Shown here piece after piece: positions 22,145 through 56,522 of a stretch of 64,000 bases of DNA (position 1 is its first letter; each line of letters opens with the position of its first letter). The DNA comes from Chiloscyllium plagiosum (taxonomy: Eukaryota), in assembly GCF_004010195.1 (NCBI RefSeq), contig NC_057719.1:40092872-40156871 (forward strand). Reading direction: 5' to 3'. The notes beneath the pieces are model-generated. The model saw nothing but the letters and a program-made list of their open reading frames with translations, did not search any database and had not been told where the DNA came from. A program made the position numbers and the translations under genes.

Positions 22145-22840
22145 ATTTACATTTATAAACTTAGAAAGCAACGATTTATTTTTATCTGAACTGGAGTCAT
22201 TTTTTCCTTACTGCCAAATGTTCCTGGTTACCATCACTTTTACATTTTAAAACAGTGTCTCCACATTTAAATAGCCCACTTGCATAATTGGCAGGTCTCT
22301 GTTGATGTTACACAAATGCGTTCGTATCTTAGGTCTGAGACTAACAAGGATTCTGTTTCAATCCATCATCAATCTCAGTTAAAGCAATGCAGCCTTAAGT
22401 GAAGGTGGACACAAAGAATAAACCATCCAGAAGTCCTGTTATTACTTGCAATTCACAGAGGCCTCTGCCAAAACAGAAGTGCTTATTGACATTATGTGAG
22501 AGGATACGTTCATCCATAATACCCAACTCCCAAACAGAAATGACCACTTAGATAAGTACCAGAGGACTGCTGGTATCCATTCGCTCCACAGAACATGAGT
22601 TAACAACTTCAGATGATTAAGGGAGTAAATTGGAAAGCTTTGAAAAAGAAAAATATCAGCTGCACATGAATGCAGCAACTTTATTCTAACATATTCCTTT
22701 GCAGTGTGTAGCAGCTATGCCTCTTTGATTTTGAAACTACATAATATATATACAGTAAAAGTGAGAATATCCTATTCCATCACTGAGTTTGAAATAAAGA
22801 ACCTGTTGGTTATTCTATCAACTGTCTACCTTCCAGAACA

Positions 22841-22933
22841 TTTTCTGAAGAAGGGCTCATGCCCGAAACGTCGATTTTCCTGCTCCTTGGATGCTGCCTG
22901 ACCTGCTGCGCTTTTCCAGCAACACATTTTCAG
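22841..22933 (+). mobile_element. 93-bp Penelope-terminus insert with minimal hammerhead motif
   Basis: Perfect 15-bp direct repeat CTACCTTCCAGAACA at 22826-22840 and 22934-22948. Core reads CTGAAGA-A-GGGC tcat GCCC-GAAAC-GTC at 22845-22872. Confidence 0.8.
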
Positions 22934-23234
22934 CTACCTTCCAGAACAATTTGGCTATCTTCATTCGTCTTCAATTTAAAACAGGTTAATCTTTGACAAA
23001 AAAAACTAGATATTTATTATATTCTATTCCTTAGTTGTAAAAGCGTTATGTGATTTGTTTTAGCCCATCATTCCTTTTTGTTCATTGCAAACACTACTGA
23101 TTTAAATTTCAGTGCATGATTACACGAGTTATTAGATTCTTATATATCAGAGAAGAAGTCTGGTGCAATAAAAATGGCTAATTATTTTTATTAGTTCTCA
23201 CAACAGTTGTTAACAAGGTGAAATTTCAATGTTC

Positions 23235-23465
23235 AGGAAATTCTGTGATAACGTGAATTTCATTGTTGTGAATTCGCTATAACGCAATTGACAAATTGTT
23301 TCTAAAGGGCTAACTTTTAAAAATTGTGTATTGGTTGTAATGCAATTCTAGCCCCATTAGTTTAAATGGTGCTGCTATCATGCAATTTTCTTATAACATG
23401 GGATTGCATGTATAACATGGGATTGCATGAGAACGGAACTACCGCATTAAAGCGGAACCGACTGT
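23235..23465. mobile_element. Tc1/mariner-type MITE fragment with a 19-bp tandem duplication
   Basis: TIR-like end GCATTAAAGCGGAACCGACTGT; TATAACATGGGATTGCATG x2 at 23392-23429. Confidence 0.45.
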
Positions 23466-24427
23466 TCTGTTAATATTCATTAATTTATTGATTAGGTTAC
23501 AATAAAGGGCAGCCACGTTTTTGGGCTACTTTGAGCAAAGGAATAAATTAAGTATTATGATTAACTTGTAAAAGGAATCTGGACAGATGCTCTCCAGTCC
23601 TTCGAACAATCCTGGAAAATGAGACCATGAGTACACATGGAAAACAAGAATAAATTACTCTTGAAACAAATGGCAGAGAGTTACAAACATAGAAACAGGC
23701 TGTTCAGAAATCTGGCTGATGCCAGTATTCATGCTCTAAGTAAGCTTCTGTCCACCCTACGTCATCTCAGCTTTTCCGTATATTCTTTTAGTCTTTTCCC
23801 CTAAATGAACTTATCTAGTTTCCCCTCAAATACCCCTAACTATGCCAGTCAATTATACCAATGAAGATACTGAGTTCCACAGTCTAACCACTCACTAAGT
23901 CAAATGCTTCTCCCAAGTTCCCTATTAGTTTGAGAATAATTATTTCATTTTTATGGCTACTACATAGAGACAACACTAACCTTCCTCCTAATTAGAAACA
24001 TGCTGTCTACATCTACTTTACTGAATCCCTCCCTAATGACAAATACTCACATCAGGTTCCTTCTGTTTTCTACTTTTCTCAAACTGCACAGAATCATATT
24101 GGGCTTTCTAGTACGCAATAGTCAAAGTTCACAATCAGGTCTATTTTATTCATATTAGATGCTTTCAGTGACCTGAACCCTTCCTGCCATTTGGTTTCTT
24201 CCACAGAAGGAATGGGGAGCTTGGAAAAATATGGAATTGCTAGACGTTCTCGATCACTCACATAGGGTTAGAGTTAAATAAGAGATGGTGCCTGAATTGA
24301 TTATTAACTTGTTTTGTCACTCAGGTGATGGGAAAAGCAGCAAATTACCACAGAGTGATAGTTGAGCACTTAGTAACTGATGGTCTTTTTTGGTCAAAAC
24401 ATTGACATGGACAATGATAGATATTTG

Positions 24428-24557
24428 GAGAAAGACAGGACTGCAGATGCTGGAAATCAGAGTTGAAAAGTGTGGCTCTGGAAAAGCACAGCAGGTCAGG
24501 CAGCATCCAAGAAGCAGGAGAATAATGTTTCGGGCATAAGCCCTTCATCAGGAAGGG
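24428..24557 (-). mobile_element. Penelope-terminus insert (same family), degenerate hammerhead
   Basis: TSD TAGATATTTG (24418-24427, 24558-24567). Minus strand reads CTGATGA-A-GGGC ttat GCCC-GAAAC-ATT. Confidence 0.78.
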
Positions 24558-24588
24558 TAGATATTTGACAAATATGTGCAACACTCAC

Positions 24589-24736
24589 CATTTCCTCGCC
24601 ACACCTCAGCCAAATGGCAACCGATCTCACCAGGCTCTTTACAGAATTCAATAACATCTTTACATGTTGTTTCTGGGGTTATAGGGACTTCAGTTAAACC
24701 CTGTTCATTGTTACTCAAGTACACAGTCAGTATCAT
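24589..24736 (-). CDS. PPP1R13B: PPP1R13B exon 2 (148 nt), ubiquitin-like/Ras-association domain
   Basis: Acceptor ttttttGCAG, donor G|GTGAGT. Translates [65 protein letters not shown] and WRGN fit ASPP1 better than ASPP2. Confidence 0.96.
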
Positions 24737-25189
24737 CTGCAAAAAAGAAAAGATTTTACATATTAAACTTAAACTATAATGATTTCAGTTTAGGTTTTAA
24801 TAAACTCAGATTTCCAAAGAACACCTTGTACATTCAAACTTAAACCTATTTTTTAAAAGGACAAACTCATTTGAACAGAGACCAACAATCTTTTCTGAAG
24901 AACAAATTTACTTGAAATATTCTGGGTTATAGCTCTCAATGGAACACAGTATAACTGTTGAGATTCTGGACAAAGTTGAAAACAAATCAATGAAAGCATA
25001 TTTATTGCTTTAAAAATAAATCATAGAGCCTGGAAACAGATCTTAACATTTTCATTTAAAAAGAATGCACTTGCCTCAGCAATATTTTGCATCAAATGTA
25101 TAACTTACTGTATAGCTAACACTAAACTGTAGCTCAACCTACCAATATGTCTTTAAAAGAACCCCCCCGAGCCAAATTTAAAAGAATGA

Positions 25190-25378
25190 TGTTAAAATTC
25201 ACACAACACCAGGTTATAGTCCAACAGGTTTAACTGGACACCAGGTTGTGATAAACCACCTGATGAAGGAGCGGCGCTCCGAAAGCTAGTGCTTCCAATT
25301 AAACCTGTTGGACTAAACCTGGTGTCGTATGATTTTTAACTTTGTACACCTTAGTCCAACACCGGCATCTCCAAATCA
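25190..25378 (+). mobile_element. Second-family Penelope-terminus insert with inverted arms
   Basis: TSD TAAAAGAATGA (25179-25189, 25379-25389); inverted segments ~25191-25233 and ~25299-25340. Confidence 0.75.
25257..25291 (+). ncRNA. Minimal type I hammerhead ribozyme motif
   Basis: CAC-CTGATGA-A-GGAGC ggc GCTCC-GAAA-GCTA-GTG: stem I CAC/GTG, perfect 5-bp stem II, palindromic AGCT in place of stem III, CUA cleavage triplet. Confidence 0.7.
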
Positions 25379-25392
25379 TAAAAGAATGACGG

Positions 25393-25587
25393 CATTCAAA
25401 TAAAGACAAAATACCGAGCATGTTGGAAATCAAACAAACACCGAGAATGCTAGGGAAACTCCGACTCAACTCCATCAGAACCTTCAATTCTGACGAAGTC
25501 ATACCAGCCTAGTAATGTTAACTCTGCTTTTCTCTATCCACAGATGTTGCCAGATCTGCTGAGTTTCTCCAGCATTGTGTTTTCTTC
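25393..25587 (+). mobile_element. Older third-family Penelope-terminus remnant
   Basis: Degenerate CTGACGA core and a CCACAGATGTTGCCAGATCTGCTGAGTTTCTCCAGCA tail, flanked by degenerate AAA(A/G)GAATGA(C/T)G repeats. Confidence 0.6.
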
Positions 25588-28056
25588 AAAGGAATGATGT
25601 CTACTAAATTTCCCAGAACAGTACATCTGTATCAACGCTTGAATCAAAACAGCAGCTACAGATTCTTTTTTCACGCACTATGCACACGGCTAATCATATC
25701 AATGATTCAGAAGACCAAATTCATTTGTTCTCATTGCACCTAAAATAATGATGCTACTGCTTGAATAATAAAACCACAAGTGGAGGCTAAGTACCAGAAG
25801 GTTTTAGAGTAGTGGCTCTCAAAATACGTTTATTAAAAACAAAAGGGAGCAGCTTTCAATAAATTCATTAAAAGTTTGTTGAACCTAAAAAGTTCTCAGT
25901 ATGAATTAATTTGACACTTATTTTTCAGTTTTCCATATTAAATCATTTTCTGTTATCTCTTACTTCATTAAATAGTATACTTTACTGGTTGATGAGGTTA
26001 TAACAAGTATTAAACAATAGAAGAGAGCTTAACTTGAATTCAGTGGAAATTAAAATGAAAATCTGTTTCCAAAATGGGCTGCCAAATCCAAACACTTTGC
26101 CTGGTTTTATGCCTGGTGATATACTGACTAAACCATCTCCTGTAAATCCAAAATGAAAGAGAGCTAAAGATAAACACTATTCATCAACTCGAATAACAAA
26201 ACATTCCCAGTTCTGTGACTTGCACACTAATTACCAGAGATAAATAGTATTTATCTGGTATTTTACTGAGATTGCATTTAACACAAGTAGCTTCGATAGT
26301 ATGCAACAATTTTGTTCCCTCATGGCAATTATCCAAAAACTTTTAAGGTTGCAGATTAAAAACAATAAAATCATATTCTACCTACTTTATTAAGATGCAT
26401 CACATACCTCAAAAAACTGCACAAAATGCTGAATTTATCAGAACACAACTTGTAACAAGACCACACACTGTACAAAACTCTGCTTGCCAAAGTACACAAA
26501 AGCAGCAGTTCATGTTTATTTGTGACGAAGAAACATTAACTTGATGATTGCAGGTGTTTTGCATACAAGGTCAAACTAAGCATTTCTAGATCACAATCAA
26601 CTTACTGTTACATTAGTTCAAAGAATATTGTATCATTTATACTTTACCTTTCCATGTGTGTAATTAGTTTTATTCCTGATATGAAGCTTTTGACCAACTT
26701 TTTTACATAGCCAAGAATTCTCTCTTGACTTAACGAAGCTCTGCAGTACCATTGCAACAAAATTCGTCATTTACTTTGCACTAATTATCAAACTTGAGAA
26801 AAAAAGAAAATGGAGGGAAATACAAAGAACAGGAGAAAAATGTTCCTGTCAACAGGAATGGAATTCCAAAGGAAAACAGTCTACCACCAGGTCTCTGTAC
26901 TAGGCTCAAATGGTAATCCACTTCACTGCATTAGCAGACGTCATTGGGTTCTTGTGATGCAGAACCAGCAGGCATACTTACGACTTTAACACCGATAAGA
27001 CGGCCCAAATAAAACAGGACAGCATTTTCTATTGACAGCAAATGGATATCAAGTACACTCTAATCTCTGATACATTTCAGGGAAAGAAGTTATATCAGTA
27101 GGTTAAAAAAAATCTGGATGCAGAATCATTGAAATGATAGTATGCGATTTGCAAAATATTTATTTACCGTTCCAACTTCACATCTTACCATTACACAATT
27201 AACTGTTAAAACATGCTCACTTTGTAGCTTCAATTTCGCAGCAGATTGCCACTTTTTGATGTAACATTTACAAGTTAACTTAGCTTTCATGATTATATAT
27301 GTACTGTACATTCCAGAACGTTATGCATGTCAAATGCAAGCAGTAACAACTTGAATTTACTACATAAAATTGCTACATAAATGGTCCAAAGCACATCAGA
27401 TGCCTGCTATTAAAGTAATCAATACAAAGCTACACAAAGAGATACAAGAAAGAGGTGGGTTTTAGGGAATAACTGTAAGGAGCAAAGATCACCAGAGAGC
27501 TTCAGGAAAGGCATTCTGGAGCTCATGATGTGGTCACCAAAGATGTTGTGTGGGATCTGAAAGACTCCAGAATTTGAGGAATGTGGATATCTCAAAGAGC
27601 TGTCAGACTAGCAGCAGTTACAAATAGAGGGTCAAAGCCATGGAGAATTTTGAAAACAGGTAGAATTTTAAGAGAATGCCATTGTTCGACTGGGAGTCAA
27701 CATCGGCCAGCAAGCACAAAAGTGGCGGGTAAATGAGACTTCATGCGAGTTACATTTCAAATTGCAGAGTTTTGGATCACCTGAAATTTACAAAAAGATA
27801 GAATCAAGGATGATGATCAGGGAAACTAATGTCAGCTTTCTCTGATTTTGTGCTGCATCAATGCAAAACAGCTCCCTAAACAAATCAGAATGGTAGATTA
27901 TAAACTTCGCCAAACATTTACATTTCCCTCAGGTAGAGCTTTTTAGTGGCACCACAGCTACAGCCAAAAATATAGTGAACTGTAAAACAAGCTTTTGGGA
28001 TATGCAGAAAAACTTCAAAATAGCCTGATTAAAGTTTTGCATGTTGTCAAACATAT

Positions 28057-28173
28057 GAGAGAGAGACACACACACACACACACACACAGAGAGAGACAGA
28101 AAGAGAGAGACAGAGAGAGAGAGACAGAGAGAGAGAGACAGAGAGAGAGAGACAGAGAGAGAGACAGAGACAC
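28057..28173. repeat. Compound (AG)n/(AC)n/(AGAC) microsatellite
   Basis: Directly visible. Confidence 0.95.
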
Positions 28174-31419: not shown

Positions 31420-33720
31420 TAACAGGACAGTCAGGAGCTGAAAATCTGCAACATGAGTCGCAGCTTAATTAATAATTTTTTGAAGAACAAGGAGGCAGTG
31501 TGTGTTTATTGGTCATGAATTACATGGTGGTAAGTTATTTGAAACATTTCTGAAGGACAAAATGTATCTACTTTTGGAGATAGCTGGATTAATCAGGGGA
31601 AGCGGGCATGGATTTGTTATTGATAGATCATATTTGGCAAATTTAATCAAATGTTTTTGAGGAGGTAACCAGGAGTGTAGAAGAGGATAATGCTTTTGAT
31701 GTGGTCTATATGATCTTTAGCAAAGCTCTAATAAAATCCTTCATGGCAGATTGGTCAACAAACTAAGAACCCACGTGATCCAAGGCAAAGTGGGGTCTTG
31801 AAACCAAAACTATCTGAGCAGGATACAGAGGGTGATGGCAGAGAGATGTTTACATGACTAGAATTCTGCTTGGTGTTGGAGCCCTTGCAGATCATGGTAT
31901 ATTAACAATTTTGACTTAAATGTAGAGGAGATAATCAAGATGTTTGCAGAAGACACAAATTGCAATAGTAAATGATAAACAGAATGATTGTAAACTGCAG
32001 GAGAATATTTATAGACTAGTCAGTTAGGTAAGGCAGTCGTAAATGGAATTCAGCCCAGAAAAGTGAGGGGTAATGCACATGGGGAGGTCTAACAAGGCAA
32101 GGGATTATAACATGATACTTTCAGAAACCTACTGAAGATCAGAGGCATCTTAGTTTATATATTCATGGATTTATAACAGGGCAGGTTGATTAGATGGTTA
32201 AGATAGCATATGGGATCCTTGCCTTTCTCAGCCAATGTACATAACACAAGAAGGATGAAGGATGTCACGTTGGAACTGTACAAAATGCTGGTCTGGCTAC
32301 AGCTGGGGAATTGCATGACATTCTGGTCATTACGTTCAAGAAAGGATGAGATTATATTCAAGAGGGTGCAGAAAAGATTTACCAGAATGCTGCCTAGGCT
32401 GGATTAATGGGAAGAAATGGAATAAGATAGAGTTGCTTTCCTCAGAGCAGCAGAAGCCATACATAAAAGTGAAATTAAGACAACGTTCATCACAGTTCAG
32501 TTAACAGCTCCTGGGCTCCACGAAAGCAGATTAAGGAACAATGGGAATACCCTGAAGACACAGCTGGGACAAGATCACCATTCCAGGACAAGACCTCCAA
32601 GACGGGCCGTTGGAATACTGGGCTGGAAGCCTCTGCTGAAAATCACCATGCCAAACAGACTACCTGCCAGGCCGCTGAAATATCTGGAAGCTGAAGACAA
32701 AAAAGGCCTCCACTTGGGGACGAGACCTCCAAGCCAGGTCAAGACTGCCACACCGGGAGACCACCATGTTTTGCAGAGACTGGCACTTCTCCTCCTTCAG
32801 GCAGCAAGGCCTAGCCATGGATCTGGAACCTCAGCCTCACTGTAAGCCCAGGCCAGAGGAGTCAGCCTGGAATTTGCTCCTCCCTTGCCGGGACACCCAG
32901 GACTAGGGTCGAGCCACGTCCGGTTCATCCTGTTGTCACTACCATTGCCGCCAGACGCCTCCTCCTTTACTGGTCACTCTCCAGACTTAGAAAGATACAA
33001 AAAGAAAAAAAAAGATAAAAAGAGCTAAACGATAAAAGAAGAAGAAAAAAAAGAAAGAGTAAGAAAGCTGATGGGAGCAGTTGAGTCCCAGGCTCTAGAG
33101 ATAAAGATAGAGTGGAATGGAATATTTCTTCCATTTGTAGAGGGACCAATAACTGGGGAATACATTTAAGCCAAGAGGTAAATGGTTAACAGCACAGTTG
33201 GGGTCATTTCCTCCCCACTCAGAGGATGATGTGATTCTGGAACTCACTGCTTGGTGGCACGGTGGCTCAGTGGTTAGCAGTGTTGCCTCTCAGCACCAGC
33301 GTCCCAGGTTCGATTCCAGCCTTGGATGACTGTCTGTGTGGAGTTTGCACATTCTCCGTGTTTGCGTGGATTTCCTCCGGGTGCTCCAGTTTCCTCCCAC
33401 AGTCCAAAGATTGCAGGTCAGATGAAGTGGCCATTCGAAATTGCCCATAGTGTTAGGTGCATTAGTTAGAGGGAAATTGGTCTGGGTGGGTTACTCTTCG
33501 GAGGGTCGGTGTGGACTTTTTGGGCTGAAGGGCCTGTTTCCACAATGTAGGGAATCTGGTCATCTAGTCTAAATGGTGGTCAAATCAGAAACATTTAAGC
33601 TGCATTTAGATAGTCACTTGTGTAGCCAAAATCTAGGGTTATGGGCTAAAAGCTGGAAAATAAGATTCACGTAGTCAGATTTTGATTGGGCAAGATAGAA
33701 CAAATAGACCTTTACCAACC
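31420..33720 (+). mobile_element. Decayed CR1 LINE with nested inserts
   Basis: DVTLELYKMLVWLQLGNCMTFWS..RVQKRFTRMLP. Confidence 0.75.
33253..33570 (+). mobile_element. HE1-like SINE
   Basis: GGTGGCACGGTGGCTCAGTGGTTAG head and family body. Confidence 0.87.
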
Positions 33721-37162: not shown

Positions 37163-37553
37163 GGATAGACCTTTTCAAGAGTGCTCCGTCAAAATCAATA
37201 CCAGCTTCATGTATTTGCAAATTATATTTTGACTTTGTTATTGGCAAGTACAAAAAAAAGGTAGATAATATGGTAAAGTATCATATTTCAAATACCTCAT
37301 ACTAGTACAGGTGCATCCTGCAAATCTTTGTGCTCTCAATCATTCCACATGCAAGATCATCAGGAACTAACTTTGTTCGCTGGTACTAAGGAAGTGAGAA
37401 CCATACTATACCCTTCAAACCAAAATGTTGGAAAAATCCACTGAAAAAGAATGAAAATACCCAATGTACTAGTGCATAAATTGAAATTTAATTCAGGAAG
37501 TTCATGATTTTGTTTTTGCCAGTGCTCCCTGATTTGAAAATGCTTCTATATGA

Positions 37554-37753
37554 AATATCTCCTACTCCTGCCCAGCATGCTGATTATTTATGTCAGATAA
37601 GACCAGCATATAGTGTAGATGTTGAATCACTGCCTTGTTTGATACAAACAAAACGACATGGACAAATTAATGTCCAGTGATTCAACATCTACACTATCTG
37701 CTGGTCTTATCTGACATTAATAATCAGTGTGCTGGGCAGGAGTAGGAGATATT
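37554..37753. repeat. Long inverted repeat (79-bp arms, 42-nt spacer)
   Basis: 37554-37632 is the reverse complement of 37675-37753 with 4 mismatches. Confidence 0.92.
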
Positions 37754-37911: not shown

Positions 37912-38155
37912 ATGTCGAGAGTATGGTGCTGGAGAAGCACAGCAGGTCAAGCAGCATCGAACGGACAGGTAGGACAGGTCATGAGGGTGGTGCCAAGTTG
38001 GGAGGTTGGATCTAGGATAAGGTGTGGGGGCAGGGAAAATGAGGAAACTGGTGAAATCCATATTGATGCAGTGTGGTTAGAGGGTCCCAAGGTGGAAGAT
38101 GAGGTATTCTTCCTCCAGTTGTCAGGTGGTAGGTGTTCTTCCTCCAGTTGTGGTG
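37912..38155 (-). mobile_element. Penelope-like C-terminal fragment
   Basis: Minus strand reads QLEEEYLIFHLGTL*PHCINMDFTSF, joined to the GCTGCTTGACCTGCTGTGCTTCTCCAGCA terminus. Confidence 0.7.
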
Positions 38156-38334: not shown

Positions 38335-40255
38335 TTTAAATTCATTCATGGGGTGTGGGCATCACTGGCCAGCCAGCATTTATTGCCCATCCCTAGTTGC
38401 CCTTGAGAAGGCATTGGTGAACTGCCTTCTTGATTCGCTGCAGTCATGTGCTGCAGGTTGGCCCACAATGTCCTCAAAGAGAGAATTTTAGGATTTTAAC
38501 CCAGAAACACTGAAGGAATGGCAATATATTTCCAAGTCAGGATGGTGAGTGGCTTGGAGAGGAACTTCCAGATGGTGTTCCCATGTATCTGCTGCCCTTG
38601 CCCTTCTGATGGAAAGTGTTGTCTAAGGATCTTTGGTGAATTTCTGCAGTGCATCTTAGTACATACAGTGGCTACTATCTACAAGTGTCAGTGGTGGAGG
38701 GAGTGGATGCTTGTGAATGAGGTACCAATCAAGCGGGCTGCCTTGTCCTGATGGTGTAAAGCTTCTTGAATGTTGTTAAAGCTGCATTCATCCAGGCAAG
38801 TGGGGAGTATGCCAACACACTCCTGATTTATGCCTTGTAGATGGTGGACGGGTTTGTTGGATGCTGGATGGGGAGTCCAGGAGGTGAGTTACTCACTGCA
38901 CTATTCATAGTCTCTGACCCTACTCTTGTAACCATTGTGTTTATATTGTGTTTCTGTTCAATGATAACCTCCCGGATGTTGATAATGGGGGATTCAATTA
39001 TGGTAACACCATTGAATGTCAAAGGGCACTGGTTAAATGGTCTCTTATTAGAGATGGTCATTGCCTGGCGTTTGTGGGGTGTGAGTGTTACTTGCTATTT
39101 ATCAGCCCAAGCCTGGATATTATCCAGGTCACGTTGCATTTGAACATGGACTACTTCAGTGTCTGAGGAGTCACAAATTGTGACCATTTGTGTAATTATC
39201 AGTAAACACCTCCACTTATGTCCTTATGATCAAGGGAAGGTCATTGATGAAGCAGCTGAAACTGGTTCAGTCAAGGACGCTACCCCAGCAATTCCTGTGG
39301 AGAGGTCTTAAGGCTGAATGACTTATCTCCACCTACCTAGGTGTCAGGTATGACTCCAACCAGCAGAACACTGGCCCTCTGATTCCCATGGATTCCAGTT
39401 TTGCTGGAGCTTTGGGGGCGGCACGGTGGCACAGTGGTTAGCACTGCTGCCTCACAGCGTCTGAGACCCGGGTTCAATTCCAGCCTCGGGTGACTGACTG
39501 TGTGGAGTTTGCACATTCTCGCCGTGTCTGTGTGGGTTTCCTCCGGGTGCTCTGGTTTCCTCCAACAATCCAAAAATGTGCAGGTTAGGTGAATTGGCCA
39601 TGCTAAATTGCCCGCAGTGTTAGCTGAAGGGGTAAATGTAGGGGAATGGGTCTGGGTGGGTTGCGCTTCAGCGGGTCGGTGTGGACTTGTTGGGCCGAAG
39701 GGCCTGTTTCCACACTAAGTAATCTAATCTAATATAAAGCTCCTTGATGCCATATTCTGTCAAAAGCAGCCTTGATGTCAAGGGCTGTCACTCTCACCTC
39801 ACCTCTGGAATTCAGCTCTTTTGTCCATGCTTAAACTAAGGCTGTAATGTGGTCACGAGCTGAGTGGCCCTGGCGGAACCCAAACTGGGCATCATTGAAC
39901 AGGTGCTGCTTGATAGCTTGATGATACCTTCCACTGACGATGGGGCATTAATTGACCAGGTTAGATTTGTCCAACTTTTTGTGTACAGGATATACATGGG
40001 TAATTTTCCACTGCATCAGGTAGGTGCCGGATGCCAGAATTAAGCTGTATTTGTACTGGAACAGCTTGGCTAAGGAAGCAGCAGGTTCTGGAGCACATGT
40101 CTTTTGTACTATTGCCAGAATGTTGCCAGGGCCCACAGCCTTGACAGTATCCAGTGCCAACAGCGCTTTCTTGATATCACATGAAGTATATCAAATTGCT
40201 CCTGCCATGCCTTCTTGCACTCTCCATTGAATCAAGGTTGATTCCTTGGTTTGAA
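38335..40255 (-). mobile_element. CR1/L2-clade LINE (distinct family) with nested SINE
   Basis: ALDTVKAVGPGNILAIVQKTCAPEPAASLAKLFQ..SNLVN and PLTFNGVTIIESPIINI. Related 3'-end pieces at ~54348-54432 and 57745-59190. Confidence 0.78.
39414..39732 (+). mobile_element. HE1-like SINE, young, nested in a LINE
   Basis: Full head, body and AATCT tail. Confidence 0.88.
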
Positions 40256-43675: not shown

Positions 43676-43960
43676 TGGTTGTGGAGTTTGCATGTTCTCC
43701 CAGTGTCTGCACAGGTTTCTGCTGGGTGCTCCAGTTTCCTCCCATGGTTCAAGATGTGAAAGAGGTGGATTAGCCACACTAAACCGCCCATTGTATTCAG
43801 GGATACGTAGGTTAGATGCATTAGCTATGGGAAATGCAGAGTTACAGGGATGGTGTAGCGGGATAAGTCTGGGTGGGATGTTCTTTGGAGGGTCAGTGCA
43901 GACTTGTTGGATTGAATGGCCCGTTTCCACACTGTAGAGATTCTATAATTCTATTCTATG
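43676..43960 (+). mobile_element. 5'-truncated HE1-like SINE
   Basis: Body and tail only. Confidence 0.75.
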
Positions 43961-45288
43961 ATGATCTGGGAAACAGTCCAAATGTTCTTCCTGTAAAAGC
44001 TCCTTTTCTCTTTATACCCTCATCCAATTCCAGATGTAGTGCTATCACCTCAAGTATGTCAACTTTCTTAACCCCTACTTTTAATTCTAACACCAACTTT
44101 CCTGTGAAAGCTACGAATCTACTCTTGGTTGATAGTCTTTTCCAAAATTCTCAGAAATAAATCTTCCTTCTCCAGAAAAGTCATTACACCTGACAAGGCC
44201 ACTTTTGTTTTCAACAGGTATTGCAAAACTCAGAATGAAAATCTTATCAAGGTTAACCTCAGCAAGTCCCAGCATTGATATTTGTCTGTGAATTTAAAAT
44301 TCCACAAGAACTGCCAAAATATGCTACAATTTCAGACAAGGCTATGAATTAATATTATGGTCTCTATCTAGACATTACCTTATGATCCTTGATAAACTGC
44401 CAAATTTATGTTTTAATCTCAGTCAAGAGCAGTAATTTATTTTTGTTCAAAGTAGTCAAAGTTTGAAATCCTAGATATTTACTAAGAGAATAAAGCCACA
44501 AGATTTTATGCTTCTGAACAAACAAAATACGCAAAAGTGAGTAAAGAAAAAAGTAATCTAATACATACACAAGTTAGAATGGAACATTCAGGATTAACAG
44601 GAGATAAATATAGGTTAACAGACAAACTTGGCCAAACATCACACAAAGAACATCAAGTAGCAGGTGCAGTCAAGACAGTCCGCATGGAATTTTCAGAAAC
44701 CTTGAGTTTTTAAGTGACAATGGGGGCCAAATTTCATTAAGACTTTGTCTCCTTTACAAAGGATTCATGTTTCTCACTTTCAAAAATCAATCCTAGAAAC
44801 TTCATTAAAGCCAATTCACCACCCACTGCCTCAATGACTGGTCATCTCTCAGTGATTGAGTGTCTATCCTTGGAATGGTCCTCTTAATTCTCATGCTGCA
44901 TTTGACCTTCTGCTCTCAGCACACACTAAGCTGCCCTGGATTTCCTCAAGATCTGTCTCCCAACATATACCAAGCAAATACTACACAGAACTTCCCTGAA
45001 CTTCACTCTCAGCTGCACTGAACTGATATTTTTTTCTAGCAATGACTTGCTCTCATTTCCTAATATTACAAATACCAAAAGGCTTCAAAATCCCAACTTC
45101 TTAGCATCACAAAGCCAGCAACAAGCACCACTTGAGTTGCATGGAGCCTCTTCCCTTGCTCCTGACTAAAACCCTCAAACTGATTACTACCCCTGAACCA
45201 CTGTTCACTTAGACTTGAACTGATCTGGGTATCCTCACAAACTACTTGAGTCCTGCCCAGTTAGTTAGTTATAAGACAGAAACAAATG

Positions 45289-45516
45289 TTGAAAAATGTG
45301 TTGCTGGAAAAGCACAGCAGGTCAAGCAGCATCCAAGGAGCAGGAGAATCGACGTTTTGGGCATAAGCCCTTTTTCAGGAATCTGGTTCCTGAAGAAGGG
45401 CTTATGCCCGAAACGTCGATTCTCCTGCTCCTTGGATGCTGCCTGACCTGCTGCGCTTTTCCAGCAACACATTTTTCAGCTCTGATCTCCAGCATCTGCA
45501 GTCCTCACTTTCTCCT
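45289..45516. mobile_element. Palindromic Penelope-terminus insert
   Basis: 92-bp inverted arms 45290-45381 and 45387-45478 (4 mismatches, 5-nt loop); TSD AGAAACAAATG at 45278-45288 and 45517-45527; intact plus-strand hammerhead core at 45390-45417. Confidence 0.82.
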
Positions 45517-46619
45517 AGAAACAAATGCTTCAAGCACTGGAACAAAGCCTGAGAGTGTGGTACGACTCTCCACATCACACAGCCCAAAGATACAAGAAAC
45601 CTAAATTTGATAACATGCACCATATTTTCTTTTCTATATTAAACTAAACCTCAAGCTAAGGTGATGCTTCACACTGAAAAAAATCAAGAGTTTCAAAAGG
45701 TTTGCTTATCTGCCTGCCTGTCTAGTACTCTTCAAAGCTTTGTTTGCAAAGTGAAGTTGATTCAGATTTATACCCCATTCCTAAGCCCAGGATAGTATCC
45801 TAAACATCAACTGAGAGTTTATAAACCTCCTCCCTGCCCAGTATTATGCAGCAGCAAGATAGGGAAATCCCCAATATCTCTATTAGTTTCTGCCTCCTGT
45901 CAGTCAGCAAAAGTTCACATTTTTTTTGGCCTTGTGACAGTTGGAGATTCCCTGGGAAGACGCTCTCCTACCAGCTTTGGCTGTATTTGAGACCCAACTC
46001 CCAGCTCCCACTCTTGGTTTCCAGCTGCCTCCCTATTGGACTCTCTTTTTCTGATTCTTCTCCTTGTTCCCCAGAGGATGTGGAATGGATCAGACTTGAT
46101 GATACAGCTAAAAGTCTCCTGAAAAACAGTAATGGGACTAGCCAAAATAACTGTTACTTCACCAATCACAAGTTTCTCCCCTTCCATGTATGCTGCTTTT
46201 TGAATCATGAATTAAGTCTCCAGAGGTGCGGTATAAATCATGTAGGAGGGGACTGGTGAACAGAGCTAGTTCAGCAAGCATGGGAGTAAGGGAATCTGGG
46301 ATTACAGAAACAACAAGGATAAGAGAGTCACAAGATGTGAGGAGATGCTTCTCCAATCACAATTCTGCATTATTTTCTCCTCACTCTCACACTGCAGTTT
46401 CAATCTTTTTTGGACTCTGGCGAGGGTGGAAGTTGGAGCTAATATATACCGAAGTTGACTTTGGTCTCCAATTTTGCTTTTCCTTTCATCCAGATCTTTA
46501 ATTTGCAATAAGATTATAAATGAAATGTCTGTGTATTTTGAACCCAACTGCCAAGTCAGCCAATAACAAAATTAGTAAAATTGAACATTTTGCCCTATAA
46601 ATACTTAAGAGTTAAATGT

Positions 46620-48957: not shown

Positions 48958-50395
48958 TCAAGCTCCTCATGGTAGACTGCTTAGCAACGTTAAATCACAT
49001 AGAATGCAGGAAGAACTAGCCATTCGGATACAGCACTGGCTCAAAGGTAAAAGATAGAGGGTGGTGGTGGATGGTTGCTTTGTAGACTGGAGGCCTGTGA
49101 CCAATAGAGTGCCACAAGGATCAGTGCTTGGTCCATTGCTTTTTGACATTCATATTAATGATTTGGATGTGAACATAGGAGGTATAGTTGGTAAGTTTGC
49201 AGACGACACCAAAAGTGGAGGTGATGTGGACAGTGAAGAAGGATACCTTAGAATACAACTGGATCATGTTCAGATGGGTCAATGGGCCAAGGCATGGCAG
49301 ATGGAGTTTAATTTAGATAAATATGAGGTGTTACATTTTGGAAAGGCAAATCTTAGCACGACTTATACACTTAATGGTAAGGGTCCTGGGAGTGTTGCTG
49401 AACAAAGAGAACTCGGAGTGCAGGTTCATGGTTCCTTGAAAGTGGAGTCACAGGTACACAGGATAGTGGTGGTGGTGTTTGGTATGCTTTCCTTTATTGG
49501 TCAGAGCACTGAATATCAGAGTTAGGAGGTCATGTTGCAGCTGCACAGGACATTGATTCGGCCATTTTTGTAATATTGTGTGCAATCCTGGTCTGGTTCC
49601 TATCAGAAGGATGTTGTGAAACTTGAAAGGGTTCAGAAAGATTTACATGCATGCTGCCTGGGTTGGAGGATTCGAGCTATCGGCAGAGGCTGAATAGGCT
49701 GGGTTTTCCCTGGACCATCAGAGACTGAGGTTTATAAAATCATGAAGGGCATGGATTAGGGTAAATAGAAAAGCTCTTTTCCCTAGAGTGGGGCAAGTCC
49801 ACAACTGGAGGCCAATTGTTTAAGGTGAGAGGGGAAATATTTAAAAGGGACCCAAGGGCAACTTTTTCACACAGAGGGTGCTGAGTGTATGAAATGAGCT
49901 GCTGGACAAAGTGGTGGAGGCTGGTACAATTAGAACATTTAAAAAGGATGGGTATATGAATAGGAAGGCAGAAATGGGTAAAAAACAATGACTGCAGATG
50001 CTGGAAGCCAGATTCTGGATTAGTGGTGCTGGAAAAGCACAGCAGTCCAGGCAGCATCCGAGGAGCAGTAAAATTGACGTTTCGGGCAAAAGCCCTTCAT
50101 CAGGAATGCCCAAAATGTCGATTTTCCTGCTTCTCAGATGCTGCCTGACCTGCTGTGCTTTTCTAGCACCACACTCGGCTTGGCACTGATATGAATAGAA
50201 AGGGTTTAGAGGGATATGGGTCAAGTGCTGGCAAATGGGACTAGATTAATTTAGGATATCTGAATAAGAAGGGTTCAGAGGGAAATGGGCTAACTGCTGG
50301 CAAATGGGACTAGATTAATTTAGGATATCTAGTCAGCATGGACGAGTTGGACTGAAGGGTCTGTTTCCACACTGTACACCTCTATGACTCTATGT
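48958..50395 (+). mobile_element. CR1 (HER1-like) LINE RT and 3' end
   Basis: VPQGSVLGPLLF..KFADDTK..WQMEFN; ~69-bp tandem duplication near the tail (50193-50330). Confidence 0.88.
49969..50188 (-). mobile_element. Partly palindromic Penelope-terminus insert nested in a CR1 3' end
   Basis: TSD ATATGAATAG(G/A)AAGG at 49954-49968 and 50189-50203. Minus-strand core CTGATGA-A-GGGC tttt GCCC-GAAAC-GTC at 50103-50076. Confidence 0.78.
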
Positions 50396-52588
50396 TATAA
50401 ATCTCTCAAAGTACAAAGGGAAACAAGAATAGTAACTAAATACACCTTACTTGCAGTGCTGACAATTTCATCAACCCAACCAAAAGATATAAAGATCAAA
50501 TTTGAGAGTCAAACATACCCAATATTTAACGGGCAGTTCAACATATACAAACTGGTTCCAGTTATTCGATGATTAAACCAATGTTCCCAACTTTTTTGTT
50601 GTGATGATTATGTTGAAAAGCAAAGAAATGTCAATTGGCACCAAACATTTTTGACAATAAGCAGCAGAATCAGAAGTAACATAATCGAAGAACTAGCACA
50701 CGTTGCTCAGCTGCATTGAAATCAGAACATTCAAAAAGACACACACAAACGCGACAATTAATTCAGTAACTTTTGAAAAGTTGTTTTATCAACAGAGTAC
50801 AGTCAGTTGAGAATCTAAAATATAAAGCGTATACATATTATATAACCAAAAAACAAAAATCAACATTTTTAAAAATAATTTTTTCTTGCCTATAACTCTT
50901 CACATTTTCTCCAAATTAAACTACTCATAATTTCACAATAAAAGCAACAGCTTTAATACAATTTATTGACCAAACAAAATACATCGAACTATGAGTGAGT
51001 TGTAGCAGTTGTTTTGCCAGAGTGAAACACTCATATTTCAAAAGTTTCAGGTCACATCACAAATCAAAAAAAGTTCCCCCACACTTTTATCCCTAAGGAG
51101 CTGCAGTTTATTCCGCAGTATGGGTGGTATGGTAAGTACCTACTTGAACTTGAGCATTCTTTAAGTACCTGCAAACCATTTCAGTAATACTTCCTTAAAA
51201 ATAATTAAAATAACTCACTAAAGCTTCTCACAGGGACCAATGGAAGGGGTGAAGCAATTATGATTATGAATCACCATCTTTGGGTTCCCTGATTGCCTGT
51301 CTCACCCTCCCTCACCTCATTGTTCTTTCCATATCCCTTTCAGTGAGTCCAAGCAAATCCACAAATTGATGTAAAAATACAGTTTCAAAAACAGACTTAC
51401 AAATAAAATGTTAAAGTTTGGAACTGCATTCTGCAACAGATATTTATTAAATGGAAATGACAGCAATAAATCCCAGAACATGCATCAGTACAGACTGTAA
51501 TGAATAAACTATTGTTCTGTCAGCTAAACACAAGTACAAGTAGGGTAGTGAATGAGGCAAAACAAAATTGCAAACCTGGTAAATAACTGGATCTCCACTA
51601 CTTTTCCAACTTTGTGTCAAATGTCAAAAGGTGTATATTCACAAGAAGTTAATGTTTTTTTCTTCCTACCTTTTCCATTAAAGAGGTAAAGCAATATCTT
51701 ATTGGGGGGAGGGGAATGGGAATGTAGGTGATTGAAAATTAAATTGCAAAGGGAGGAGTTTCACCTAAAATATTTTAGTATTTTGTCCTTAAGTTAAAAC
51801 CCCATCAAAAAGTCAGGCTTTCACATAACTTAATACAGTAACTTTAAACCTCGGACAAAAGTAGGGTGGTCTTATCAAGCTAAAAACTAAATCTAGCGAA
51901 TGCGCAACATTGTTGTACAACAACTTCATTATTATCTCGGGTAGAAATCTTTGACACACTTGGAAAGATAAAGGCCGCCGAAAACATAGCAAAAATAGCT
52001 AAATCTTATTTTTACCATTAATGGAATTACACATACTATTCATAGAAATATCACTAAAATGTTAGTGTTTTGCATCAAAGATTTACAATTTACACTCGCT
52101 ACGATATCAAGAAGTCCAACTTTTTCAAAGTCTTTTTGATATAATTCAAAAACTTTACAGTATTTACGTTTTAACGAACATCAGGATATGTCAAGTCTTT
52201 ATTAAATCAGTCAGTAAAATGATACCAAGATCATCTTAGATAATGGAGTGTAGGCAAACATCAAAACTCATGGAAGACATTGCTTGAAGGATAACATAGC
52301 AGAACATAATACTTTGATTTTTAAAATTAATATCTTTGACATGAACATTAAAATATCAGTAACACATCATTGCGAGTTATGTGAACACTGTGCAATGAGC
52401 CAGTAGAAAGGAGTTCACTGCGGTATTTTAGTTATCGCTCTTTTCTGCCACAATAGCGCAGAAACCCCATGAATTTATCAGATTACTCCTTCGTGGGTGA
52501 ATCATTATTTTAAAAAGGATAGCCAGTTTCGCCCTTAACCATGTCGATTCAAATTAGAGTACCAGGACAAAACTAGACAAATACTCAC

Positions 52589-52597
52589 CGGCATCAT
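52589..52597 (-). CDS. PPP1R13B: PPP1R13B (ASPP1) coding exon 1 (MMP)
   Basis: Minus strand reads gccaaaATG ATG CCG|GTGAGT at the edge of a CpG island. The 9-nt coding exon MMP with a consensus donor joins in phase 0 to the exon at 24736. Confidence 0.92.
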
Positions 52598-53200
52598 TTT
52601 GGCGACGTCTTAGCACAATCCTACCACGCGATCAGAAAGAAAAAAAGGTGCAATTCCCTTTGATCCCGGGTCAATGTGAGCGACCGCCGGCAGCTGGGAG
52701 GGGAGGAGTCTGGTCGGGGCACCAGTCCAACTCCAGGCCGCTGCTCGCTGCACCCTTGACACTCGGCCCAAGGAGACAGCAACATCCACAGGGAGCGATG
52801 GAGGGGGTGAGAGGGGAGCTGTGTCGTTTGTAGGGGAGGAAAAAAAATGGTAACCGCTCCGGCGGCTGCCGATCTCTGAAGTTGTTTCCGTTGAGGCTCG
52901 GTGCCGACGCGCGCTGAAGCCACGCCACCAGTAAGGCCCAGTCAGCTGACACCGCGCCCTCCCGCCCACTCCCTGCGTCAGCCCCGGGAGCCTGGGCGTC
53001 AGGTACCAAACATGGCGGCGGCTCGCAGGCACTGCCAGTTACGGAGGCTGTCTTTCACTACCACTACCTGTACTAAACAAAAATGTCGTGCTTCTCCTTC
53101 CCTGATATCTCACTCAAGAATATGGTGCTTTACGTTAACGGTTCGGTCGGTTTGACACGCGGGTGGAAAGCTGTTAGCAGACATGACGCAGGAGCCTGGT
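52598..53200 (-). promoter_or_regulatory. PPP1R13B: CpG island: PPP1R13B 5'UTR and promoter
   Basis: Sharp GC/CpG enrichment directly upstream of the start codon, a GC box (CCCGCCC ~52961) and a YY1-like AACATGGCGGC (~53009-53019). The TSS cannot be determined from sequence. Confidence 0.8.
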
Positions 53201-53404
53201 ATCTCTGGAATGTAAACCAATTGTCTCCGGATAGTCTGCAGGAAAGGCACAGCAATGCAGAGCAACATGGCATTGCACCAACTCCCTCAGAACACCACAT
53301 CAGTTCCGATGTACACCGGCCGCCCCCTATTGTCCGAGAGTGCTTTAAACAGAGAACTGACAATCTTTTAAAAATACTTTCAGCTCAAGCACAGAGCCTT
53401 TGTT

Positions 53405-53559
53405 GTGATTTGGACACGCTGGGAGTGTTAAAAATCATAATACTAGGTTATAGTCCAACCTGGTTTATTTGGAAGCACAAGCTTTCGGAGCGCTGCTTCT
53501 TCATCAGATGGTTGAGCTAGTGCTTCCAATTAAACCTGTTGGACTATAACCTAGTGTTG
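53405..53559 (-). mobile_element. Second-family Penelope-terminus insert upstream of the promoter
   Basis: Same family as 25190-25378; near-TSD AGAGC(C)TTTGTT; minus-strand core CTGATGA-A-GAAGC agc GCTCC-GAAAGCTT. Confidence 0.7.
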
Positions 53560-53694
53560 AGAGCTTTGTTAATATTGTATTTTAGTCGCCACCTCTTTTT
53601 TGTATAATGCCAAATGATGAATAAGTACATAAGACTGTATTAAAAGTAATCATGGGCATCTGGAGCTGTCCTGTGCTAACTAAAAAAAAATAAT

Positions 53695-53822
53695 CAGTTA
53701 CCTGATGAAATACAACACTCAAAGCTAGTACTTCCAACTAAACCTGCTGGACTATAAGCTAATGTTTTGTGATTTTTTAAAAAACTTTGCCCATCCCAGT
53801 CCAACAGCAGCACCTCCACATT
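53695..53822 (+). mobile_element. Degenerate second-family Penelope terminus
   Basis: CCTGATGAA...AAAGCTAGTACTTCCAACTAAACCTGCTGGACTATAA resembles the 25260-25378 sequence. Confidence 0.6.
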
Positions 53823-54867
53823 AAACCTCGCATGGGCAAAGTTTGAAAAGCCAAAGCTTAAAATTCACAATTTTTTCAGTTTTAAGTTGTTTTACTAATT
53901 AAGTTTTGGCTAAGTTTACCTTATATCAGGATAACTTCACCAGATATTAGTCAACCTCCTGCAAAAAATCCACTTGCAGAGTGTTTACTTCATTGTTTAT
54001 GCTTGAAATGAACAAGCTTAAATCGGTGTCCTCTGGTATTTGAATTTGGTAATAAAACGGAAAAACATAGAAGTACACAGCTGTCCTAGCAGCATTTGTG
54101 CAGAAGCTTCAGGTCAATAACCTTCAGCAAAAGAAAGATGAGCTTTAATTTTATGCAGTGTTCACAGGTACCTGAATGCACTGCTGTAACTGACAGTTGA
54201 AGCTGATTTAACAACTCTTAAAGAAATCGGGATATATGTACTTGCTTGTGAAGGAGGAGACAAACTGATGGGCAAAGAATTTGACATGAAGTCTGCACAG
54301 CTTCTCCCATGTGTGGTCATTTTCTAAAAATCACTTCAACTTTTTTTAAATTCATTTGTGGAATGTGGGTGTCCTGCCATCATTTATGGTTGTCTCTAGT
54401 TGATCTCCAGAAGGTGGTGGTGAGCTGCTTTGGTTCCACTGTACTTTTTTTTAAAATTAAAAAAAATTTTCAATGCAATTGAATATACTGATAGGATTGA
54501 CAGTCATTTTCTAAAAATATGATTGGGTGGAGAAAAATATCTTAAATAGTTGCAAGATGTGAATAGTTGCATGAATTAGAACATGCACAAACACTAGCGA
54601 TTGCTTCCACCCAATCTTGAGCAACAAGACCTTGGAAAAATAAAAGTAATCCAAATAACAACACGAGTATCCAACAATTGCCTCCACCCACTCATTCCAA
54701 ACTGGTGAAGCAATCTTCACCTATAAACCATCCAAGTAATTATAGAATGGCAGAATGAAAGTAAAACCACAAACTTTTCTAAATGATGTAAAGTTAAATC
54801 CATTCTAGACAGAGAGAAAAAAATAATAAAAAGGGATCCACAATAAACTTCCATTTCCAGAGCATCA

Positions 54868-54873
54868 TTTATT
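54868..54873 (-). terminator. ATP5MJ: Probable ATP5MJ polyadenylation signal (AATAAA)
   Basis: TTTATT on the plus strand, about 140 nt downstream of the stop codon, followed on the minus strand by T/GT-rich sequence. Confidence 0.7.
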
Positions 54874-55010
54874 GGTACAATTTCATAAACCTTGCACACA
54901 TTTGAACAAAATATATTGCGTGCTTCCAGATGATAAGTCTTCTGTATCCCATTTCATTCAGTAACGGTTTACATGATTTTAGCACAAGTCCATGTACCTC
55001 AGTTGTAGTG

Positions 55011-55033
55011 TCAATGTCCTGGACTAGAAGATT
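55011..55033 (-). CDS. ATP5MJ: ATP5MJ last coding exon (KSSSPGH*)
   Basis: Long poly-T tract, then ccTAG|AA TCT TCT AGT CCA GGA CAT TGA. The PGH ending resembles human APGHH. Total CDS 165 nt = 54 aa + stop. Confidence 0.87.
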
Positions 55034-55162
55034 CTAGGTATGATTAAAAGAAAAAAAAAACAAAAATATTACCATACAAAATATTTGTAATTCAAAGGAT
55101 GACAAAATGACAACTCCCAATTCTATTCTACGAATAAAGAGACTGTTCACTATATGATACAT

Positions 55163-55420
55163 GGGCTCTTGTGGCTCAGTGGTTGCGTCCCTTCCTCTGG
55201 ACCAGAAAGCCCAGGTTCACATTGCACCTGCTCCTGAGGCACATCCTAACAAAAGCACAATATTGTGGATGCTAGGAATCCAAAACAAACATTCTTAAAG
55301 TTTCAAATCTAGTGTGACTCTTGAACATTTGTCTCCAAAGATGCAGTCAGACTTGCAGAGTTCCTCCAGCATTGTGTTTGTAGGTCATACCATGTCCGAA
55401 CATGTTGATTAAAAATATCT
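55163..55420 (+). mobile_element. Short tRNA-derived SINE interrupted by a Penelope-terminus remnant; related copy at ~57532-57640
   Basis: GGGCTCTTGTGGCTCAGTGGTTGCGTCCC head. Both copies share a CATGTC.GA...GTTGATTAA end. Confidence 0.5.
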
Positions 55421-55689
55421 ATGAAACATGGGGGCTGCAGATAGAAGTAAAAACACTTTTTTTTGCGACATTTACAAGTGCTCTTACACACAACTGAATA
55501 TCTTCCCACCCCCATCTCAAATCCCATGTTTGTTTTTCCAATCTATTAACCATCACCAGTAAATTGAAAAACAGTTTAAAGTAAGGATAAGTTGGTCTAT
55601 CCCTGACTATTGGTGGTTTGGGGGAAATAAAGGCAAATTGCACATCTGGTCAGTCTGTATCTTAAAATACTTCATATCTCATCTAGTAC

Positions 55690-56522
55690 TGATCAACAAG
55701 CACCTGCCTGTTTACTTCCTCCTTCCTCAGTCTCCAAGAGCCCAAACACACCTTCCAGGTGAAGCAGCACTTCACTCAAATCTTGTGTACTGCATTTGCT
55801 GCTCACAATATGGTCTACTCTACATTGGGGAAACAAAGTGTTGACTGGGTGACCGCTTTGCAGAAGACCTGCATTCTGTTTGCAAGAAAAAAAAAACCCT
55901 GAGCTTCCGGTTGCCTGCCATTTTAACATACCACCCTGTTCCTGGCCAACATTGGTCTCAACTTGGTGCAGTGTGCCAGTGCACCCTGCAAGAACAGCAC
56001 CTTATTTTCTGCTTGGGAATTCTACAGCCATACGCTCAAGTTCAAGTTCAACAACTTTTGGGGTTTGAGTTGTCCAAAGTCCTTATCCCTATCCCCACAC
56101 ACCAGGCCTTGTTATCACATGGTCTGCTATTGCACACACTCTAGATCAGAGTGGTGCTGGAAAAGCACAGCAGGTCAGGCAGCATTTGAGGAGCAGGAAA
56201 ACTCGACGTTTTGGGCAAAAGCCCTTCACAAACCATTATTAGTCACAACTGTCCCCATTAATAGCTATTCTGCTCGAGAGAGGTATCCACTCATTTGTCT
56301 GCTCAACTGGTTCTCTCTCTCTCTCTCTCTGGACTTTATCTCTACCTACTGTTTACTCCTTACCCCTTCTCCTCCTCCTCCCCTCCCAACCAACCTATCT
56401 TCTGCATTAAAAACAGCTTTTTCCTAGCTACCATCAGTTCTGAAGAGTCACCTGACCTGAAACATTGACTATTTCTCTTCAGACATTGCCAGACCTGCTG
56501 AGCTTTTCCAGCAATTTTTGTT
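55690..56522 (+). mobile_element. Penelope-like retroelement 3' remnant with GIY-YIG endonuclease
   Basis: Disrupted reading SNLVYCICCSQYGLLYIGETKC*LGDRFAE..PELPVACHFN and EQHLIFCLG.LQP (GIY-YIG type VY..YIG). Terminus carries a degenerate CTGAAGA..GAAAC; a nested terminus fragment lies at ~56143-56228. Confidence 0.8.

Follow-up and report, generated by a model that had tools for sequence, protein, structure and literature searches.

The short hammerhead-bearing inserts dispersed through the window (the whole 64,000-nt stretch of DNA analysed here) are, with a probability of roughly 0.7, dead, 5'-truncated termini of Penelope-like elements (PLEs) from three endonuclease-bearing families, made by the ordinary PLE insertion reaction. 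The inserts are mostly ordinary, and the clustered stop of their 5' ends just before the ribozyme is a feature that random truncation does not explain. A strict descriptor of the motif (CTGANGA, 0 to 1 nt, a paired stem of at least 4 bp, and GAAA) matched the window five times, at 22845, 25260, and 45390 on the plus strand and at 24551 and 50103 on the minus strand, compared with a mean of 0.14 matches (maximum, 2) in 200 dinucleotide shuffles of the window. When a palindromic stem III was required as well, four of the five matches remained, compared with 0.005 in the shuffles. Decayed or partial copies were also present at 25490, 53702, and 56440 (plus) and at 45378, 53507, and 56232 (minus). 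The motif was thus found, whole or partial, in nine short inserts and one longer PLE body, which fall into three families (A, B, and C), in agreement with the initial annotation, which had proposed dispersed short inserts with hammerhead motifs from at least three families of Penelope termini. PLE termini cover ~2.2% of the window (1430/64000 bases). The inserts are PLE termini that carry minimal hammerheads of type I, a kind already described: the main text of Cervera and de la Pena (2014; PMC4209133) reports that PLE terminal repeats carry minimal hammerheads (min-HHR), and it mentions neither sharks nor any tendency of inserts to end at the motif.

We tested for direct repeats at 13 loci against a null of 1500 random positions, and the five inserts said initially to have repeats of 10 to 15 bp were all confirmed. 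Within family A, a 93-bp terminus (A1; 22841..22933, plus strand) has an intact hammerhead at 22845, lacks the tail, and is flanked by a 15-bp duplication (22826-22840 / 22934-22948; P = 0.0007). The 130-bp terminus A2 (24428..24557, minus) carries the tail and a decayed stem III and cleavage triplet between copies of a 10-bp duplication (24418-24427 / 24558-24567; P = 0.007). Two family A inserts are head-to-head pairs. The first, A3 (45289..45516, plus; 228 bp), has an 11-bp duplication (45278-45288 / 45517-45527; P = 0.004), an inverted arm without tail (45289-45381) whose core is broken at G8 and G12, and a direct arm (45387-45516) with an intact hammerhead at 45390 and a tail. The second, A4 (49969..50188, minus; 220 bp), has a 14/15-bp duplication (49954-49968 / 50189-50203; P = 0.003), a direct arm from 50107 with an intact core at 50103, a broken first stem I pair and a variant tail, and an inverted arm (50107-50188) that resembles another subfamily. 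The family also includes A6 (37914..37969, minus), a fragment without hammerhead or duplication, and A5 (56139..56228, minus), a terminus that lies inside the PLE body and begins within the first core box. In family B, the head-to-head insert B1 (25190..25378, plus; 189 bp) consists of an inverted arm (25190-25247) and a direct arm with an intact hammerhead at 25260 and a tail, bounded by an 11-bp duplication (25179-25189 / 25379-25389; P = 0.004). It shares one target with C2 (25390..25587, plus), an old family C head-to-head insert with a tailed inverted arm (25390-25478) and a decayed hammerhead at 25490 in its direct arm; the direct repeat of C2 is weak (9/10 bp; P = 0.16), and a third copy of the repeat stands at 25588-25597 (9/10). 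No duplication was found for B2 (53424..53577, minus), a tailless head-to-head insert with a hammerhead at 53507 that has one stem II mismatch and an inverted arm at 53515-53577, or for B3 (53695..53822, plus), a decayed terminus with tail whose boundary was set by loss of similarity. The family C fragments C3 (41285..41338, minus; partial tail, no hammerhead) and C4 (55327..55379, plus; hammerhead absent or unrecognisable) also lack a duplication. In all, 7 of the 13 loci gave no direct repeat (P of at least 0.43 against the 1500 random positions). The duplication-bounded lengths of 93 to 228 bp fit the range of 93 to 230 bp first given, and the insertion targets are modestly AT-rich (71% AT compared with 61% window-wide).

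The coding connection comes from C1 (55690..56522, plus), a 5'-truncated PLE body with a broken GIY-YIG-like frame (~55740-56070), a 3' noncoding part, and a decayed hammerhead at 56440, without tail, in keeping with the initial description of a GIY-YIG body ending in a related motif. The frame matched Pfam PF01541 with an E value of 0.0078, short of the cutoff, and two related proteins with 60 to 66% identity. The family C motif sits after this frame, the window holds no reverse transcriptase part of C1, and families A and B, which have no coding body in the window, are tied to a coding element by the shared motif alone. Sequencing data aligned to 55640-56570, in which RNA was represented by a poly-A single-cell run and RNA contigs, showed that other genomic copies extend beyond 56522 and that A5 is missing from other copies of the body (read joints 56120/56136/56138 to 56247). 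In the runs aligned, the terminus was far deeper than the body (in X21, 160 to 180 raw reads over the terminus and at most 10 over the body). Depth follows the local divergence of the C1 copy, families A and C have the terminal box in common, and no depth step was resolved at the hammerhead. Nor did these reads contain a site where many molecules start or end, a kind of site that the library type may not reveal. A2 sits ~30 nt into the intron that follows a host exon encoding the N-terminal RA domain of an ASPP-family gene (24590..24736, minus; PF21801, E = 4.7e-26), which is likely exon 2; the likely first coding exon, at 52597-52589, falls within a CpG island.

The motifs themselves retain much of the published PLE form. 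An extra A between positions 9 and 10.1, initially ascribed to all copies, occurs in 9 of 10 arms with the first box still in place and is absent from the body motif at 56440; the main text of PMC4209133 gives the extra nucleotide as a conserved trait of PLE minimal hammerheads. Helix II has 4 to 5 bp here, compared with 7 to 8 bp in the Schistosoma families of that study. The G10.1-C11.1 closing pair occurs in the A arms (one with G12 changed), B1, and B2. Helix I has two to four contiguous pairs beside the core in A1, both A3 arms, B1, B2, B3, and C1 (C2 was not scored in register) and is broken in A2 and the A4 direct arm; A2 has also lost the palindromic stem III through a CpG change. Each of the three families keeps a complementary stem I despite their differing sequences. 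B3 has a single double change there, which may be chance in a copy ~74% identical. Three arms (A1, A3 direct, and B1 direct) combine an intact core with an intact stem II and an intact first pair of stem I. Folding by energy minimisation did not yield the active dimer fold as the top structure, and an Rfam search matched no hammerhead family at E values up to 10. Motif scans of metagenome contigs, prokaryote genomes, and viral contigs gave no match, as expected for a vertebrate repeat.

The layout of the arms carries the assignment to the PLE insertion reaction, and its two main elements, head-to-head pairing and two classes of 3' end, go beyond what was initially described. Five of the nine short motif-bearing inserts are head-to-head pairs (A3, A4, B1, B2, and C2), and in A3, A4, B1, and C2 only one arm has a tail, which is 35 to 38 nt long in families A and B and is also present in C. 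The 3' ends fall into two classes in each family, 35 to 38 nt apart in A and B: A1 and the A3 inverted arm end at the same column, and A2 and the A3 direct arm are 35 to 37 nt longer; the B1 inverted arm and both B2 arms are short, and the B1 direct arm and B3 are ~38 nt longer; and C1, C2 direct, and C4 belong to one class and C2 inverted to the other. An inverted arm with a one-sided tail is the published PLE layout, given that endonuclease-positive PLE insertions show 5' truncation, an adjacent inverted copy, a one-sided tail of 30 to 40 bp, and a duplication of 8 to 10 bp (PMC3846280; PMC8557442). The present inserts share with them the head-to-head arms, the tail on one arm, the direct repeats, the modestly AT-rich targets, and insertion into or beside another PLE (here A5 in C1 and B1 beside C2). 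However, the inserts here are mostly only the last 90 to 130 nt, and their duplications reach 15 bp. The two 3' end classes match both this tail and the two reverse-transcription start sites that, according to the main text of Frangieh et al. (2024; PMC11167929), lie downstream of the hammerhead and define the tail of the Poseidon element of Anolis (PAc) in vitro, and so they support the PLE insertion reaction. In that account, the Anolis element is also alike in using uncleaved RNA as template and in extending both target strands; its main text reports no preferred 5' stop at the hammerhead. Nested insertion was rejected as the source of the unlike A4 arms (57/70 identical, with five transversions and different 3' ends), because the 5' part that the inverted arm lacks does not turn up on the other side and a single duplication encloses the two arms.

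The 5' ends are where these inserts depart from plain truncation. Among the 18 arms of this one window, 9 end between -4 and -14 relative to the CUGA box, 8 stop downstream, and 1 continues ~750 nt upstream. Of the 10 arms that extend as far as the hammerhead 5' edge, 9 therefore stop within ~14 nt of it. Counted by insertion, 8 of 13 end in this interval, 4 fall short, and 1 runs on. The downstream stop rate gives a probability of 0.08 for a stop within 14 nt, for which 9 of 10 has a binomial P of ~1e-9, a value that is indicative only because offsets were assigned manually, with several of the downstream ones approximate, and because paired arms are not independent. The 5' ends are not randomly distributed; random 5' ends had been named initially as a sign of simple truncation. 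Literature searches, mostly outside subscription papers and supplements, found neither a published shark case nor 5'-end clustering at a hammerhead.

Clustered 5' ends could also arise if the 90- to 130-nt termini were independent, nonautonomous, SINE-like masters with fixed ends and their own transcription that borrow the PLE protein. The near identity of A1 and the A3 direct arm (69/70) at a distance of 22 kb, the excess of termini over bodies in read depth, and the ability of PLE terminal repeats to act in trans (PMC3846280) fit such masters. We nevertheless consider them unlikely: the same layout recurs in three different families, which points to a shared insertion reaction, every head-to-head junction differs, each family has two 3' ends, and a polymerase III B box was absent from both strands of all nine inserts scanned, which also lack a poly-A tail. 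Rather improbable, too, is plain random truncation, under which the clustering would be an artefact of motif-based finding and of the upstream sequence of families A and B lying outside the window. The 8 arms that stop downstream, the 1 that runs on, and the reading of single motifs as truncated PLEs in the main text of PMC4209133 are in keeping with it. However, motif-less fragments were also gathered, by profile search; the duplications of A1 and A2 place their boundaries at -4 and -6 independently of the upstream element sequence; and family A copies share nothing past ~4 nt upstream. Spliced-RNA run-off was not supported either, since the family A copies share no upstream exon. Retrozyme-like units, in which dimeric hammerheads would cut multimeric RNA and the monomer would circularise and be reinserted, are highly improbable despite the three arms in which core, stem II, and first stem I pair are all intact, the complementarity of stem I across families, and the PLE-related retrozymes of vertebrates, including one cartilaginous fish (bioRxiv 10.64898/2026.07.22.740005), because the window has no same-family head-to-tail repeat (B1 and C2, the sole same-strand pair within 2 kb, belong to different families that share a target), none of the 18 arms starts at the cleavage site (B2 inverted comes closest, 4 to 5 nt before it), uncleaved RNA is the main template of the Anolis element in the main text of PMC11167929, the reads list no pile-up of molecule ends (which the library type may not show), and the copies decay at CpG sites. 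Animal non-LTR retrozymes (PMC7229834; bioRxiv 10.64898/2026.07.22.740005) are likewise short, noncoding, and PLE-related, with a type I hammerhead and long duplications when present, but their head-to-tail repeats yield monomeric and circular RNA, whereas the inserts here are single or head-to-head and end as PLE termini. The initial view that the terminal module was inserted on its own thus fits best in its form of extreme truncation, with a preferred stop, and fails in its retrozyme-like form.

Under the PLE insertion reaction, an element-encoded enzyme would cut the target with the 10- to 15-nt stagger recorded in the duplications. Reverse transcription would start inside the element RNA at two sites, ~90 or ~127 nt downstream of the hammerhead 5' edge, a cause borrowed from the Anolis element for the two end classes seen here. 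The enzyme would copy through the uncleaved hammerhead, as suggested by copies that span the cleavage site, and would mostly finish at the stem I 5' strand, 4 to 14 nt before the CUGA box is reached from upstream, where stops were observed in the window. The template may end at that point, in which case these would be run-off copies initiated within the transcript's 5' terminal repeat; the main alternative for the stop is arrest or template release at a ribozyme-protein complex. The other target strand would often prime a second copy, which could produce the observed head-to-head pairs with a tail on one side only. After insertion, the motifs appear to decay without visible selection in this small sample. 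Family A motif CpG positions changed in 8 of 41 cells, and non-CpG changes affected 2 of 61 core and 19 of 322 downstream cells. Stem II of family A had 0 changes in 52 cells; this slight excess of conservation over the rest counts against the neutral-decay picture, and in an invariant stem there were none of the compensatory changes that had been raised as a check.

We tentatively suggest, as a possibility that we rate as doubtful, that the majority of PLE insertions in this genome arose as "strong-stop-like" run-off copies, which the protein would begin in the 5' terminal repeat of its own RNA, ~90 to 127 nt from the RNA 5' end, with the boundary at a transcription start right before the hammerhead. 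Head-to-head pairs would then come from two RNA molecules priming on the two target strands, as suggested by the unlike A4 arms when set against those of A3 (67/70, no transversion), and the hammerhead would mark the RNA start or protein-binding end and not a cut site. In Drosophila virilis Penelope, transcription starts 46 nt ahead of a 75-bp intron (PMC2377424) whose far end lies at helix I, which places the RNA start ~120 nt upstream of the hammerhead and argues against a general rule that the RNA starts there. The inserts are dead elements with no sign of a host role. Collectively, they and their like in the genome represent very many natural insertion records, which bear on the role of the hammerhead in PLEs and on the origin of inverted ends. 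Were the 5' boundary to be the RNA start, the records would show where the RNA begins, whether inverted arms need two templates, and why short copies dominate.

Similarity and profile searches of the window recovered 13 loci that fall into three families (A, B, and C) of Penelope-like element (PLE) termini. Nine are short inserts carrying a whole or partial hammerhead motif, three are motif-less fragments, and one is a longer body, C1. A strict hammerhead descriptor found 5 motifs, compared to 0.14 in shuffles, and direct repeats of 10 to 15 bp were significant at 5 of the loci, weak at 1, and absent at 7. The short motif-bearing inserts, with their lengths and direct repeats, agree with the initial annotation, the observation of which was real and correctly described overall. 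At 25179-25597, two PLE families adjoin at one target, where a 10- to 11-bp repeat is present in three copies. The body (55690-56522), previously called a GIY-YIG Penelope body, does contain a broken GIY-YIG-like frame, but the domain match was below the cutoff (Pfam E 0.0078); of two related proteins, one had a weak GIY-YIG match and the other had none. A family A terminus (A5) has inserted into C1 and is missing from the body's other copies in the genome. The stretch just before the family C hammerhead, 56400-56439, contains a pyrimidine-rich tract, two AG dinucleotides at about -13 and -3, and an initiator-like motif.

Three terminus copies, or arms (A1, A3 direct, and B1 direct), appear fully intact. 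The stem I strands of every family can pair, with sequences that differ between the three families. The extra A previously assigned to all copies was found in 9 of 10 arms but is absent from the motif of C1. Stem II never varied within family A (0/52 cells changed), so there was no compensatory change to count. Changes affected 8/41 cells at CpG positions of the motif and 2/61 in the non-CpG core versus 19/322 in the downstream part, so that the core was no better kept beyond sampling noise; three changes in these counts, all in A5, are alignment dependent. Judged from sequence, the copies look like decaying relics. PMC4209133 reports that most motifs occur singly, probably as remnants of truncated elements, and that some form close pairs on opposite strands, a pattern to which the motifs here also conform.

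Five of the nine short inserts (A3, A4, B1, B2, and C2) are head-to-head pairs, an arrangement that had gone unremarked. Every family has two classes of 3' end, with a spacing of 35 to 38 nt in families A and B; the longer end, or tail, occurs on one arm only in four of the five pairs and on neither arm of B2. This is the layout of endonuclease-positive PLEs as given in PMC8557442 and PMC3846280, in which insertions are 5' truncated, have an inverted copy next to them, and may end in a tail of 30 to 40 bp. For an Anolis element, PMC11167929 equates the tail with the stretch separating two internal sites at which reverse transcription starts, and reports that both target strands are extended and that the main template is uncleaved RNA. 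In the centre of the B1 pair (25236-25250), a short piece of the inverted arm, from about 25207, has been copied a second time, a slip while the arms were joined. The 11-nt spacer of the A3 arms (45379-45389) is similar to the A4 tail variant, by chance or by a template jump.

The 5' starts, set by hand and counted from the C that opens the CUGA box, fell at -4 to -14 in 9 of 18 arms, downstream in 8, and far upstream in 1 (the body); per insertion, 8 of 13 stopped at -4 to -14. At A1 and A2, the target-site duplication fixes this boundary directly. From the downstream stop rate, 8% would be expected to stop within a given 14 nt, compared to 9/10 observed, which is indicative only, given nonindependent arms and hand-set offsets. 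The random 5' ends that the initial annotation had named as evidence against its proposal were thus not seen in the window. The boundary coincides with the 5' strand of stem I, suggesting that copying would start in the 5' terminal repeat and run off the template RNA at its 5' end, just before the hammerhead. A splice acceptor or transcription start at 56400-56439 could set such an end. Counting against a template end, the Drosophila element starts ~120 nt upstream of its hammerhead, and helix I is where its intron ends (PMC2377424; PMC4209133). A structured RNA halting the polymerase would also yield a preferred stop, but the halt should come before the fold rather than after it, which favors the template end. 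Ribozyme-cut ends find no support, as none of the 18 arms begins at the cleavage site. Across 55640-56570, coverage by DNA contigs from two sets, by a single raw RNA run, and by a single set of RNA contigs was far deeper at the termini than over the body, but no step could be resolved. Our literature search returned no report of shark cases or of insert ends clustering at the hammerhead; the supplements of PMC4209133 and PMC11167929, outside that search, may show such ends.

The paired arms bear on the number of templates. The A3 arms are identical at 67/70 positions and differ by transitions only; those of A4 are identical at 57/70, differ by 5 transversions, and do not share a 3' end. By transversions, the A4 inverted arm is nearer to A1 to A3 (1 each) than to its own partner, the direct arm's tail variant recurs in other genomic copies, and a single duplication flanks both arms. 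In this one case, a model in which the two target strands are primed on separate RNA molecules fits better than the self-priming proposed in PMC3846280, but unlike arms could also have come from a switch of template or from an older insertion. Taken jointly, run-off at the template end and two templates remain a tentative reading, to which we give about one chance in three.

In this vertebrate DNA, the minus strand of the window carries the 5' portion of a gene of the ASPP family. The exon at 24736-24590 (minus strand) has a match to the N-terminal RA domain of ASPP (Pfam E 4.7e-26; PDB 2uwq), and 52597-52589, inside a CpG island, is likely the first coding exon; from these two exons only, we infer that the inserts lie in the first two introns and upstream of the gene. 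Two hammerhead arms, A2 (24428-24557, 30 nt past a splice donor) and A4 (49969-50107), read in the same direction as the host pre-mRNA. Each has damage at its cleavage site or in stem I, and the A3 inverted arm is likewise damaged, while all three intact motifs are antisense, in numbers too few for testing a bias. A near-perfect palindrome of ~200 bp at 37553-37752, with long arms and no hammerhead, is MITE-like and accounts for weak Rfam microRNA matches. Further short interspersed repeats and pieces of LINEs, in many copies, lie at 9899-16267, 21837-22144, 33253-33569, 39408-39739, 43676-43956, and 60909-61020, and RT-like frames lie at 49058-49525 and 62497-62907.

The suggested retrozyme-like unit was rejected, given that retrozymes, as defined in PMC7229834 and bioRxiv 10.64898/2026.07.22.740005, have head-to-tail repeats and cleavage-set unit ends, both absent from the window. 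No polymerase III box was found in the inserts scanned. By the sequence tests applied, the inserts would work like PLE minimal hammerheads with a PLE insertion layout. The window has no coding body for families A and B, which are putative parts of a coding element. The inserts belong to an already known kind of element, and the remaining point of interest is the preferred stop before the ribozyme.
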